Below are positions 43,176-46,676 of a DNA stretch of 64,000 nucleotides, piece after piece. A program made the translations under genes and the position numbers. Under the pieces are notes generated by a model. The model did not search any database and was not told the DNA's origin. It saw only the letters and a list, made by a program, of their open reading frames with translations. The stretch lies in assembly GCA_035495855.1 (NCBI GenBank), contig DATJFD010000002.1:13365-77364 (forward strand), given 5' to 3'. How positions within the stretch are numbered: the first letter of the stretch is position 1; each line of letters starts with the position of its first letter. This DNA is from Candidatus Binatia bacterium (GTDB taxonomy: Bacteria > Patescibacteriota > Patescibacteriia > SG8-24).

Positions 43176-43817
43176 ATGTTCAGTGACAGGTCGACGCTCC
43201 ATCATTTCCTTCTGGAACGCGGCAAAGGTGAACGAGGCCGCGTCCGCGCCGACCTGGCGCTTCTCGAACCGTTCTTCCGCAAGGCGGACGCTGCCGAGTA
43301 CGACGTCTCGCACGCATCCCGCGTCGAGCCGCAGAAGGCCGCCGAGGCCATCGCCGAAGCGACGGGCGCGGACATCGAACGCGTCGACTTCCTGTCGCTG
43401 CGTACCGGTCCTTCGCCGCTCCGGGGAGATGCCGCCGTCGCCTTCTGGGAATCGCAGGTGCGCGAGCTCTCCGCCGACGTGAAGAGCCTGCTCTGGCGGC
43501 GCAACACCGGCGCCATGGAGGAAGGGTTCGGGGGCGAGAAGAACGTCCTCGAGTTCCACGACCTCATCTGGCAGACGATCGGCGAGCCGCTCTGGCACAG
43601 CTTCGAACAGAACCGCTGGGAATCCACCGGCCACAAGCTGCGGCTCATCGTTCGCGCCAACCTGCTCGAGGCCGTGAAGCAGTTCTCCGCCTTCATGCTC
43701 CTCGGCGCCGAGGAACGGCTCGTCTCGCTCCGTCCGCTCATGCGGCTCATGGCCGAGGCCATGCCCATTGGCGCGCGTAACGGCAACGACGCCGTCTGGG
43801 CGTGCATCACCGCGTAG
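43176..43817 (+). CDS. hypothetical protein, paralog family member 3
   Basis: AGGAGG lies upstream. Contains LEPFFRKADAAEYDV ... LRPLMRLMAEAMPIG...VWACITA. Confidence 0.6.
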   Translation: MFSDRSTLHHFLLERGKGERGRVRADLALLEPFFRKADAAEYDVSHASRVEPQKAAEAIAEATGADIERVDFLSLRTGPSPLRGDAAVAFWESQVRELSADVKSLLWRRNTGAMEEGFGGEKNVLEFHDLIWQTIGEPLWHSFEQNRWESTGHKLRLIVRANLLEAVKQFSAFMLLGAEERLVSLRPLMRLMAEAMPIGARNGNDAVWACITA

Positions 43818-43896
43818 TTCGTTCCTCAGAAGCCCCTCGTCGCGAGGGGCTTTTTCTTTGCGCGGCGGCGCCTCGTCTCTGCTATACTGCATTTTT

Positions 43897-45402
43897 ATGG
43901 AGACATCATCACCGTGGTCCGGCGGCGCGCCCGCCGGTCCCGCATTCCCTGCGCTCGAAGGCGTCGTCCGCGCCGACGTCGCCGTCGTCGGCGGCGGCAT
44001 CACCGGTATCACCGCCGCGTACCTGCTCGCCAAGGCCGGCAAGAAGGTCGTGCTCGTCGAGAAGGACAAGCTGCTCTCGGGCGAGACCGGCTTTACCACC
44101 GCCTTCCTGACGTACGTGCCGGACGTGCGTCTCACGAAGATGCGCGCAGCCTTCGGCGACGACGCCGCCAAGCGCGTCTGTCTCGCGGGAGCTGAAGCGA
44201 TCGACGCCATCGAGCGCATCGCCCGCGAAGAGGGGATCGAGTGCGGCTTCCGCCGCTGCGACGCGACGATCTACGCGACCGACGCGGCCGGACTCCGCGT
44301 CCTCGCCGAAGAACGCGACGTCGCCGTCGGCTGGGGCCTCCCCATGGCGCTCCACGAAGGCGCGTTCGCCGTGCCGGCAGCGGGCCGCCTCGTCGTGCCT
44401 GGACAGGCGAAGTTCGACCCACGCAAATTCCTCCTCGGCCTGGCGGAGAAGGCCGTTGCCCGCGGCGCGGTCATCCACGAGGACGCTCCGGTCACCGGCT
44501 TCGAAGGAAAGGGGACCGTCGTGACGCGCGGCGGCCGCATCGAGGCGGACGAGGTCATCGTCGCCACGCATTCGCCGATCGACGATCCGATGGAGATCCC
44601 CACGCGCCTGTTGACCTTCCAGACCTATGTCATTGAGGCGCTGTTGCCGAAGGGCGTGCTGCCTGAAGGCATCTATTGGGACACCGCCGTGCCGTATCAT
44701 TTTTTCCGGGTCGATGCGGGCGCTGACCGCGATCGCGTACTGTTCGGCGGCGAGGACCGCGAGGCCGGCACCGAGACCGACGCAGCGCCGCATCACGAGG
44801 CGCTGAAGGGCGAGCTCGCGCGGCTCCTGCCCGGCGTCGCCGTCGAGCACGTCCGCGCCTGGGGAGGGCAGATCATGCACAGCTGCGACGGACTGCCGTA
44901 CGTCGGACGTTCGAAGAAGAACATGCGGCATCTCGTCGCCAGCGGCTACGGCGGCAACGGCATGACCTTCGGCACCATCGCCGCCGGCGTCATGACGGAC
45001 CTCGTGCTCGGCCGCGAGAACGCGATGGCCGCCATCCTTTCTCCCTCGCGCCGCGACCCTCTCGGCCCGACCGTCGGACGTTTCATCAAGATGCTCGAAA
45101 AATATTTCGGCGGGTTCCTGCGCGGCGCGCTGCCGTCGGAGGTCGCGGCGATCCCCGCGGGTTCGGGCGACGTCATTCGTCTCCGTGGCCGCCGCGTCGC
45201 CGTGCACAGGACGAAGGAGGGGAAGGTGATGGCCGTTTCGCCCGTCTGCACGCACCTCGGCTGTACCGTGCGCTGGAACCAGGCGAGGACGAGCTGGGAT
45301 TGCCCGTGCCACGGGAGCCGCTTCGACGTCGACGGCAAAGTGCTGAACGGTCCGGCCACGGAACCGCTCGCGTCCGTCCCGATCGACGGCGCGAAGAAGT
45401 GA
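43897..45402 (+). CDS. FAD-dependent oxidoreductase fused to a C-terminal Rieske [2Fe-2S] domain
   Basis: VAVVGGGITGITAAYLLAKAG dinucleotide fold and CTHLGC...CPCHGSRF Rieske motif. Confidence 0.8.
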   Translation: METSSPWSGGAPAGPAFPALEGVVRADVAVVGGGITGITAAYLLAKAGKKVVLVEKDKLLSGETGFTTAFLTYVPDVRLTKMRAAFGDDAAKRVCLAGAEAIDAIERIAREEGIECGFRRCDATIYATDAAGLRVLAEERDVAVGWGLPMALHEGAFAVPAAGRLVVPGQAKFDPRKFLLGLAEKAVARGAVIHEDAPVTGFEGKGTVVTRGGRIEADEVIVATHSPIDDPMEIPTRLLTFQTYVIEALLPKGVLPEGIYWDTAVPYHFFRVDAGADRDRVLFGGEDREAGTETDAAPHHEALKGELARLLPGVAVEHVRAWGGQIMHSCDGLPYVGRSKKNMRHLVASGYGGNGMTFGTIAAGVMTDLVLGRENAMAAILSPSRRDPLGPTVGRFIKMLEKYFGGFLRGALPSEVAAIPAGSGDVIRLRGRRVAVHRTKEGKVMAVSPVCTHLGCTVRWNQARTSWDCPCHGSRFDVDGKVLNGPATEPLASVPIDGAKK

Positions 45403-45440
45403 ACGATGAAAAAAGCGCTTCGCATCGCGAAACGCTTTTT

Positions 45441-45494
45441 TTGTCGGGGCGACACGCGGGAAACCTGCGGCCCCTCGGTCCAGGACCGAGCGCA
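45441..45494 (-). pseudogene. degenerate relic of the tRNA-Pro 3' half
   Basis: About 75% identity by eye to 46144-46200 / 46351-46407 (GTCGGGGCGACA..AACCTGCGGCC.CTCGGTCC..GACCGAGCGCA). The T-loop is destroyed. Confidence 0.55.
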
Positions 45495-46047: not shown

Positions 46048-46143
46048 TGGCCCATGATGCATCTGTAGCAGAAATTTCGGCCGCCCACTACTTCTCCGCG
46101 GACCCCCGTACATAAAATTCCCCACCGGGTGAGGAATTTTTTC

Positions 46144-46306
46144 TGGTCGGGGCGACAGGGATTGAACCTGCGGCCTCTCGGTCCCGAACCGAGCGCACTA
46201 CGGCGTGGTCGGATCGCATTGCGATCCGACATTGCGAGGCGCGCCTAAGGGCGCTTCTTCTCGACGCAAGCCGCATGGCCGCGGCTTACCACTGTGCTAC
46301 CGCCCG
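46144..46306 (-). pseudogene. tRNA-Pro(CGG) copy interrupted in the D-arm by an 88-nt structured insert
   Basis: The 3' 57 nt are identical to the intact copy. The 5' part CGGGCGGTAGCACAGTGGTA resumes after the insert (46201-46288). The acceptor 5' strand has 2 mismatches to its partner. Confidence 0.6.
46201..46288 (-). repeat. three-hairpin insert element, copy 1 (inside tRNA-Pro)
   Basis: On the minus strand it reads AAGCCGCGGCCATGCGGCTT..GCGCCCTTAGGCGCGC..GTCGGATCGCAATGCGATCCGAC. Confidence 0.6.
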
Positions 46307-46350
46307 ACGATCGGAAAACAAAAACGTCCGGCTTCACCGGACGTCTTTGA

Positions 46351-46425
46351 TGGTCGGGGCGACAGGGATTGAACCTGCGGCCTCTCGGTCCCGAACCGAG
46401 CGCACTACCACTGTGCTACGCCCCG
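46351..46425 (-). tRNA. tRNA-Pro (anticodon CGG), CCA encoded
   Basis: Manual cloverleaf: acceptor CGGGGCG/CGCCCCG, anticodon loop TTCGGGA, T-loop TTCAATC. 75 nt. Confidence 0.85.
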
Positions 46426-46510
46426 AGGGTTGCGAAGCAAACCTCATTCAGATGCGCACCTAAGGGTGCCACATCTCGGCGCAAGACGCACGGCCGCGTC
46501 TTACGCCCCG
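46426..46510 (-). repeat. three-hairpin element, copy 2, directly 5' of the intact tRNA-Pro and followed by a 9-nt duplicate of the tRNA 5' end
   Basis: On the minus strand it reads CGGGGCGTA, then AAGACGCGGCCGTGCGTCTT..GCACCCTTAGGTGCGC..GAGGTTTGCTTCGCAACCCTC, then CGGGGCGTAGC (the tRNA). Confidence 0.6.
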
Positions 46511-46517
46511 TTATTTT

Positions 46518-46565
46518 AGCTTCGAGCGCCGAGCTTCGAGCTTGAAGCTCGGAGCTTGGCGCTTT
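46518..46565. repeat. inverted pair of GCTCGAA-type heptamer arrays
   Basis: AGCTTCGAGCGCCGAGCTTCGAGCTT / GAAGCTCGGAGCTTGGCGCT. Confidence 0.6.
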
Positions 46566-46676
46566 TCGCTCCGACATTGCAGACAGCATGATAAAGGACT
46601 ACGGCTCGCTTGGCAAGGGGCCGTGCTTAAATCCATAAGGAGGCTCAACCCAGCGAAAATATGGCACACGGCATCC

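Follow-up and report, generated by a model that had tools for sequence, protein, structure and literature searches.

Introduction

[quoted passage not shown] The palindromic elements of Rickettsia are numerous and lie in-frame within protein-coding genes. Insertions into tRNA genes are known as archaeal bulge-helix-bulge introns, which occupy non-canonical positions and transpose among the tRNA genes of Thermoproteales, and as bacterial group I introns, which sit in tRNA anticodon loops. Integrative elements that use tRNA genes leave behind a complete and a partial gene copy (PMC9897764). Here, we describe element E, a structured insert found in and beside the tRNA-Pro(CGG) genes of a 64,000-nt stretch of contig DATJFD010000002.1 (the whole stretch is hereafter called the window) and at tRNA genes of related Parcubacteria contigs. 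To our knowledge, bacteria have not been reported to carry small structured inserts that are specific for tRNA genes, and neither our literature searches nor Rfam yielded a description of such an element.

E resembles the IS630/Tc1-mariner MITEs in its size of about 100 nt, the lack of an open reading frame (ORF), the TA on both sides, the similar inverted ends, its ability to fold and, presumably, its mobilisation in trans. It differs from them in its imperfect inverted repeats of ~10 nt, the few copies, the restriction to tRNA genes, the lack of any partner transposase found, and a four-helix junction conserved by covariation even between orthologues. With the palindrome-associated elements of IS200/IS605 and with REP/BIME sequences, E shares small size, richness in hairpins and, to judge from covariation, action as a folded single strand; as in IS200/IS605-derived elements, insertion occurs 3′ of a short motif, and a similar one closes the element (here ..GTA in both positions). 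In contrast to the similar subterminal hairpins of those elements, however, the end hairpins of E (P1 and P4) are dissimilar, with a variable sequence in P4, and the copy number is low. No Y1 transposase, TnpB or RAYT gene was found near E. Like tRNA introns, E appears as a related insert at the same D-loop position in several tRNA genes, but its exons are decayed or truncated, an intact copy always lies beside it, one copy is antisense, and no intron model matches. The E loci also resemble the sites of integrative elements, with an intact tRNA beside a partial copy and arrays of 3′ fragments with their own terminators, whereas the whole insert is only ~90 nt, lies inside the interrupted copy and occupies five sites in four tRNAs. 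Finally, E recalls the Rickettsia palindromic elements as a short structured selfish insert tolerated within the genes of a reduced genome, from which it differs in being tRNA-specific and rare and in killing the copy it enters. We class E among the small non-autonomous structured insertion elements, where its tRNA-only targeting, very low copy number and covarying fold are unusual.

Results

E occupies five sites, all in tRNA genes

The window was compared with related loci and contigs, numbered L001-L019. When the genome collection and the metagenome collection were each scanned once with an exact pattern, five loci (L001-L005) were obtained as an unbiased sample, and all five matches lay within tRNA genes; further relatives (L006, L008, L011, L012 and L015-L019) were fetched via flanking proteins. 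The resulting set comprised 13 copies of E from the window and related Parcubacteria contigs. By match names and gene content, the hosts of all E loci are high-GC Parcubacteria/Patescibacteria, and as far as sampled E is confined to one clade of them. The metagenome-assembled genome (MAG) GCA_035494885.1, which contains L006 and L013, is labelled Candidatus Eisenbacteria; its genes have their closest counterparts in Parcubacteria/Patescibacteria genomes and share synteny with the window, and the label is probably wrong.

The copies represent five independent insertion sites in four tRNAs and in both orientations, every one of them in a tRNA gene (Table 1). In L001, from a Patescibacteria MAG, E lies in the D-loop of a tRNA-Arg(CCG) fragment (positions 1-21) and is followed by positions 20-53, a 13-nt leader and an intact tRNA-Arg. 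The arrangement in L004 is a tRNA-Phe(GAA) fragment with E in its D-loop (positions 1-20, E, positions 19-37), then 32 nt and an intact tRNA-Phe. In L003, E is antisense to tRNA-Met at the boundary between T-stem and acceptor, and is adjoined by a duplicated terminator plus tRNA 3′ end and by the intact gene. L002 and L005 are syntenic with the window (flanking genes ~75% identical at the nucleotide level) and carry an orthologue of E1, one of the two window copies; L006 has both E1 and the other copy, E2, and L011 has E2 alone. L012 is near-identical to L011 but contains two tandem E2 units (L012 5646-5827) instead of one (L011 9671-9766), each followed by CGGGGCGTA. This difference is a recent change in copy number that either re-insertion or slippage between the 9-nt repeats produced. 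At the Arg locus, E was also present in L016, L018 and L019, and L015 contained a remnant that is probably 5′-truncated. One MAG, GCA_041168945.1, has one E at tRNA-Pro (L011) and one at tRNA-Arg (L016).

Empty sites were observed in relatives, namely a single intact tRNA-Arg in L017 and tRNA-Pro without E in L008. Presence is patchy within the Pro locus as well, with E1 lacking its companion in L002 and L005 and E2 lacking it in L011. An intact gene copy stands beside every insertion. The first-pass annotation of the window, made from its sequence alone, had suggested a small non-autonomous element targeting this tRNA and a search for other copies; finding the same element at five tRNA-gene sites in several related genomes supports that suggestion.

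A blastn search with E1 gave only chance matches in phage and plasmid collections, and two pattern scans of viral contigs gave none. Covariance model R1, built from six E copies and run with filters off on the window and the locus flanks, detected no copies beyond E1 and E2 in the 64-kb window and none elsewhere in ~200 kb of related contigs. A 25-nt degenerate pattern of E likewise matched the window only at E1 and E2, with 0 matches expected by chance.

Ends and targets

The ends of E were constant. All 13 copies start with (T)AAGCCGCGG and finish with ..CG(C/T)CGTA; in 11 of them TA is found on both sides, and each intact target has a single TA. Read across the junctions, the target is TA followed by G, with a G-rich stretch before it. 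It is placed at G18 G19 (N) T A G22 in the D-loop, at U8 A9 G10, or on the complement of the T-stem. The termini form weak inverted repeats (TAAGCCGCGG and CCGCGCCGTA), matching at 5-9 of 12 positions versus 3.4 ± 1.7 for random internal 12-mers. The repeated TA may be a true target duplication or a shared crossover dinucleotide, as the sequence fits both.

A covarying four-helix fold

Both window copies and all relatives share one fold. P1 is an 8-bp hairpin (AAGCCGCG / UGCGGCUU). P2, directly after P1, is a closing helix in which GCGNC pairs with the 3′ tail NNCGCCG, and it encloses both P3, a CUUA-loop hairpin topped by GCGCC-CUUA-GGCGC, and the variable hairpin P4. The three independent hairpins proposed initially are thus replaced by four helices, with the tail paired to the segment after P1. 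In the final statistics, based on the 13-copy alignment and 26 pairs, standard pairs filled 95.6% of the pair cells, versus 28-43% when the partners were slid by 1-3 columns. Changes on both sides were found in 11 of the 26 pairs, and none of 500 column shuffles reached the observed covariation score. The covarying pairs include position 5/18 of P1 (C-G, A-U, G-C), the closing pair of P2 (U-A, C-G, U-G, G-U), two pairs in P3 and seven in P4. Unlike the nearly invariant P1, P4 differs in sequence in almost every lineage. Moreover, compensatory changes separate even orthologous copies (in P4 of E1 and P1 of E2), G-U pairs occur on the sense strand only, and single-sequence folds gave z = -2.9 to -4.5 (-4.0 for E1). 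Since the compensatory substitutions keep a single-strand fold, the folded sense strand, either RNA or single-stranded DNA, is what selection sees.

Rfam 15, searched with the window and nine related loci at gathering thresholds and, for the locus, also at E-values up to 10, gave only tRNA matches and none for E. A peptide encoded by E was considered and, on inspection of the alignment, rejected: an R-T-G triplet is kept in the P1 loop, but the frames differ, E2 has early stops, there is no ribosome-binding site, and the substitutions are compensatory base-pair changes rather than codon-like ones. Guide-like pairing between E and its target was also discarded, as copies of E that share a target differ in their variable segments.

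The tRNA-Pro locus of the window

All features of the tRNA-Pro locus lie on the minus strand (Table 1). tRNA genes were called with ARAGORN and with Rfam RF00005 at its curated threshold of 29 bits. Much of what had been read from the sequence at first pass was borne out here. The copy taken for a normal tRNA was called by both methods, and the 57 nt at the 3′ end of the second, split copy, reported as identical, are part of a 63-nt repeat with a spacing of 207 nt. The D-arm of the split copy does contain an insert, which is E1, measuring 86 nt between the TA dinucleotides and 90 nt counting them. The two acceptor mismatches out of seven correspond to positions 5 and 6 of the 5′ fragment, and the related element 5′ of the intact copy is E2, 80% identical to E1 over 60 nt according to the repeat finder. 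The last 9 nt of E2 double as positions 1-9 of the intact tRNA-Pro.

In the spacer that separates the intact copy from the split one, identity between the window and L002 or L006 is 93-96%. The 11 nt adjoining E1 on the left are invariant across four lineages. The promoter-like motif has the same placement in L002, L005 and L006. Hairpin H, located between the predicted transcription start and the orphan tRNA 5′ end, was observed in the window and L006 and is absent from L011, L002, L005 and L008; it looks inserted within the orphan 5′ end, between CGG and GGCGTA.

Table 1. Features of the tRNA-Pro(CGG) locus, other window features, E insertion sites and family F inserts.
Feature	Position	Strand	Evidence or remark
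Promoter-like site of the tRNA-Pro unit (TTGCCA, 17-nt spacer, TATCAT)	46588-46616	-	10/12 matches
Leader with ~70-nt palindromic AGCTCS-repeat hairpin H	46511-46583	-	Inverted repeats
Orphan tRNA-Pro positions 1-9, CGGGGCGTA, left flank of E2	46502-46510	-	Also in L006, L011
Element E2 including TA at both ends	46417-46503	-	R1 80.6 bits, E = 2e-14
E2 core between the 9-nt repeats (76-nt structured segment)	46426-46501	-	
Intact tRNA-Pro(CGG), CCA encoded	46351-46425	-	ARAGORN; RF00005 68.1 bits
44-nt spacer with terminator-like hairpin GACGTCCGG-TGAAG-CCGGACG, then T run	46307-46350	-	Inverted repeat
Split-copy 5′ fragment CGGGCGGTAGCACAGTGGTA, tRNA positions 1-20 (CGGGCGG TA GCAC AGTGGTA)	46287-46306	-	Sequence comparison
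Element E1 including TA at both ends, in the D-loop after G18 G19	46199-46288	-	R1 106.5 bits, E = 1e-19
Split-copy 3′ 57 nt, TAGTGCGC...CCGACCA, D-stem 3′ strand to CCA	46144-46200	-	Identical to intact gene
Terminator-like hairpin AAAATTCC..GGAATTTT after split copy	46113-46143	-	Inverted repeat
ORF of 203 aa	45514-46125	-	No Pfam match; kept in L006 (183 aa)
Decayed third tRNA-Pro 3′ fragment, from anticodon arm through acceptor 3′ strand, then terminator	45443-45493	-	blastn vs L002 tRNA 80%/55 nt
Third tRNA-Pro fragment including terminator	45405-45493	-	
FAD-oxidoreductase/Rieske fusion gene	43768-45402		
GIY-YIG nuclease-domain protein, 119 aa	61315-61674	+	Stand-alone
E at Pro D-loop	Window, L002, L005, L006		Target CAGTGG-TA-GTGC
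E at Pro 5′ end (U8A9)	Window, L006, L011, L012		Target GGGGCG-TA-GCAC
E at Arg D-loop	L001, L016, L018, L019		Target AACGGA-TA-GAAT
E at Phe D-loop	L004		Target CAGTGG-TA-GAGC
E at Met T-stem	L003	Antisense	Target GCGGGGG-TA-GGAT
Family F insert	L008 1950-2020	-	
Family F insert	L011 9870-9930	+	
Family F insert	L006 9235-9300	-	
Family F insert	L015 7445-7520	+	

The split copy is a pseudogene rather than an intron-containing gene

The first-pass annotation had offered as its other possibility that the split copy (copy 1) is a functional tRNA with an intervening sequence in the D-arm. In this reading, a functional tRNA-Pro would be obtained after transcription, by removal of the non-canonical insert or as a tRNA in two pieces. 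The 3′ 57 nt do match the live gene, the D-stem can still close round the insert, and in the window and L006 the 3′ part follows the T-stem variant of the intact copy. Nevertheless, ARAGORN made no call for the split copy, and Rfam scored it at 25.3 bits, below the threshold and only as a D-arm-less form; the 3′ part of the split copy in L006 exceeds the threshold, with 31.7 bits. The 5′ acceptor strand of the functional gene is CGGGGCG, and in the split copies it reads CGGGCGG (window), CAGTCGG (L006) or TGATCGG (L002 and L005), which mispairs at two of seven positions in the window and at four of seven, plus one G-U wobble, in L002 and L005. In the latter two the T-arm is also destroyed. The interrupted Arg and Phe copies lack 3′ ends and stop at ~53 and ~37, respectively (L001, L019 and L004 have truncated 3′ exons), the 5′ fragment of the interrupted copy in L016 begins only at position 10, and one copy of E is antisense to its tRNA. 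As had been noted initially, the insert of 86 nt is too short, by far, for a group I intron, and neither this nor any other intron family was matched in Rfam at E-values up to 10. With acceptor decay, a broken T-arm and truncated 3′ exons, the flanking exons do not encode a conserved functional tRNA. The comparison across lineages contradicts functional exons, and we rejected the intron reading as very improbable. Judged by their lineage-specific decay, the split copies are shown to be pseudogenes.

The 3′ 57 nt of the split copy are identical to the intact gene of the same genome in both the window and L006. One T-stem pair variant is lineage-specific and compensatory (GCAGG/CCTGT vs GCTGG/CCAGT) and is tracked by both copies in each genome. 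Because the 3′ part in L006 carries that genome's own variant, the intact and split copies evolve in concert; gene conversion between the direct repeats 207 nt apart has probably kept the 3′ part identical.

E1, E2 and the 9-nt repeat

The E1 orthologues of the window, L006, L002 and L005 are 80-88% identical, with changes mostly in P4 and the pairing kept. E1 is an old insertion, common to these four lineages. E2 belongs to a distinct sub-lineage (AAGACGC or AAGGCGC in P1; GGCACC-CUUA-GGUGC in P3), found in the window, L006, L011 and L012 and absent from L002, L005 and L008. Its orthologues in L006 and L011 show compensatory changes in P1.

The 9-nt duplicate of the tRNA 5′ end next to E2 had been explained at first pass by target duplication. 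The repeat itself is present, and conserved in the window, L006 and L011, but a 9-bp target-site duplication is not proven, since a TA-flanked insertion explains it equally. Two readings were considered. The repeat is possibly a 9-bp target duplication. Alternatively, E2 would have inserted at U8A9 with TA on both sides, and the element tail would have turned into the acceptor strand after two corrections; the canonical tail CGCGCCG and the acceptor CGGGGCG are identical at five of seven positions. We prefer the insertion at U8A9, because the TA rule that fits all other copies suffices. A 9-bp duplication as a general rule was rejected, as the tail NNCGCCGTA is the same at four targets and hence part of E. 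In the predicted fold of E2 with the tRNA precursor, both the element hairpins and the cloverleaf are kept, which makes it plausible that RNase P would remove E2 with the leader.

Intact genes beside E

The duplications that leave an intact gene next to E vary. In the window, L002, L006 and L016, the duplication is 207 nt, includes the terminator and has the intact copy upstream. In L001 and L019, it is ~66 nt, extends from the native leader to position 53 and has the intact copy downstream. L004 has positions 1-37 and unrelated filler, L003 has 48 nt comprising terminator and tRNA 3′ end, and at E2 only 9 nt are duplicated. Formally, all these forms fit a circle of E and a permuted tRNA recombining with the gene at the left or right TA; a tandem duplication with E in one member is formally an equivalent origin. 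We regard survivorship, in which only insertions with a spare copy are seen, as a simpler account than duplication caused by insertion. Simple tandem duplication followed by insertion was rejected for L004, where the 32 nt 5′ of the intact tRNA-Phe are unlike the region 5′ of the interrupted copy; the "filler" found in L001, L018 and L019 matches the native leader.

Other features of the tRNA loci

We also observed a second family of hairpin inserts, F, consisting of two GC-rich hairpins in the T-loop, after GGTT, of tRNA 3′ fragments (Table 1). One 51-nt version of F lies both before a tRNA-Pro fragment (L006) and before a tRNA-Arg fragment (L015). At the Arg locus, the intact tRNA-Arg(CCG) genes of L016 (1060-1320) and L015 (7201-7410) have the acceptor stems GCGTCCG and GCGCCAG. 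The downstream Arg 3′ fragment, CGGGTGC, pairs with GCACCCG (as in L001 and L017) and is identical across genomes, a pattern suggestive of gene replacement at this locus or of an acceptor stem that was rapidly remodelled.

In the window, the third tRNA-Pro fragment with its terminator adjoins an FAD-oxidoreductase/Rieske fusion gene. This gene is missing in the syntenic L006 and L005, so the region may be a small island bounded by the tRNA fragment. The 203-aa ORF of Table 1 lies directly 3′ of the tRNA array on the same strand.

Discussion

What is E?

On balance, we lean slightly towards E being a MITE-like insertion element that has no ORF and is specific for tRNA genes. Its 86-93 nt without coding capacity are within the MITE size, TA flanks nearly all copies on both sides, and the copies are dispersed over five independent sites, although the window has only two. 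Since E encodes nothing, it must be moved in trans, presumably by an enzyme encoded outside the window; we infer both this enzyme and the transposition chemistry. A hit on a single-copy tRNA gene would be harmful, and only insertions beside an intact copy would persist. E1 would have entered one member of the 207-nt tandem duplication, a member that is now a pseudogene with a gene-converted 3′ part. E2 would have entered at U8A9, so that the downstream gene would start with a former element tail corrected to CGGGGCG or, alternatively, with a 9-bp target duplication. E2 would then belong to the leader of the pre-tRNA, and RNase P would remove it.

Several observations weigh against a MITE-like element. 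Pfam scans of the ~58 window ORFs, which are housekeeping genes, revealed no transposase, integrase or reverse transcriptase. No longer element bounded by E-like ends turned up either, and the pattern matches in the collections were compact E copies only; a related autonomous element with a transposase is thus lacking from the window ORFs and from these scans. The copy number, two in 64 kb, is very low, unlike that of typical MITEs, and the inverted repeats have little length and match imperfectly. Well under 1% of such genomes consists of tRNA genes. With five of five sites in tRNA genes, the five-base motif alone is therefore insufficient to account for the exclusive targeting. The duplications beside E differ in extent and side, and no single mechanism covers them. 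Finally, the compensatory evolution between orthologues and the invariant 11-nt left flank of E1 suggest selection in place. As a nuclease-like candidate, the window offers only the stand-alone GIY-YIG protein, 15 kb away, which nothing connects with E.

The compensatory evolution, together with the invariant 5′ 30 nt and the invariant flank, fits a selected function better than a decaying transposon copy. E could accordingly be a structured small RNA useful to the host, residing in tRNA transcription units and spread by duplication and recombination between conserved tRNA segments instead of active transposition. We regard this main rival as unlikely. tRNA promoters would drive the expression of such an RNA, and RNase P or terminators would release it. 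P1, P3 and P4 are kept by compensation at the same locus, in E1 (window, L002, L006) and likewise in E2 (window, L006, L011) and in the Arg copies (L001, L016, L018, L019); the first 30 nt of E1 and of the Arg copy in L001 are identical. The restriction of G-U pairs to the sense strand agrees with a transcribed E, as do the four of five site types in which E is sense to the tRNA and the three of five in which it lies directly upstream of the intact tRNA, so that transcription must include it as leader. However, copies of the E1 and L016 types lie behind a strong terminator and have no promoter-like site, the L003 copy is antisense, that of L015 seems 5′-truncated, and L008 and L017 do without E. 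The constant TA-bounded ends and the GGTAG-like target resemble insertion events, and no Rfam family matches E. The partial genes, in turn, could be attL/attR scars, with E as the leftover att-site arm of integrative elements that used tRNA genes and lost their bodies by deletion. An intact plus a partial gene is the classic footprint of integration (PMC9897764), arrays of tRNA 3′ fragments, each with a terminator, follow tRNA-Pro or tRNA-Arg in the window (45443-45493), L006, L008, L011 and L015, and the intact tRNA-Arg of L015 and L016 differs in its acceptor stem from the downstream fragment. We consider such scars improbable nonetheless. One integrase normally uses one tRNA and one position, whereas E occupies five sites, distributed over four tRNAs and both orientations. 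Moreover, E lies between the 5′ and 3′ parts of one interrupted copy, which is not the product of an att junction, and no copy is joined to a larger element; neither a single tRNA target and crossover position nor a body between attL and attR was found. The base-pair covariation also indicates a folded single strand and not protein-binding arms.

Rather unlikely, in our estimate, is that E represents a new class of structured nucleic-acid element rather than a derivative of a conventional transposon, namely a Parcubacteria-specific functional RNA that has colonised tRNA operons and is retained by selection on the host, or a fold-guided tRNA parasite that recognises tRNA or tRNA genes and spreads via an RNA or single-strand intermediate. 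Where E is in sense orientation (four site types), the 5′ tRNA fragment that is duplicated has its start at position +1 or a few bases from it, and in the predicted fold the stacked P1 and P2 bring the two ends of E together. In the fold-guided version, E would parasitise tRNAs specifically and regenerate the gene that it targets.

Biological meaning

If E is mobile, it shows how selfish elements can survive in the compact genomes of the candidate phyla radiation, by using the most conserved sequences available and persisting only where the gene is regenerated or duplicated. E would be a bacterial counterpart to the disruption of tRNA genes in archaea, and would provide a route to tRNA leaders, tRNA pseudogenes and altered acceptor stems. 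In practice, E and the accompanying tRNA fragments will mislead tRNA annotation in these MAGs, as illustrated by the split-copy 3′ part of L006. Should E prove to be a functional RNA instead, it would add a new class of RNAs to a lineage in which experimental RNA biology is almost absent.

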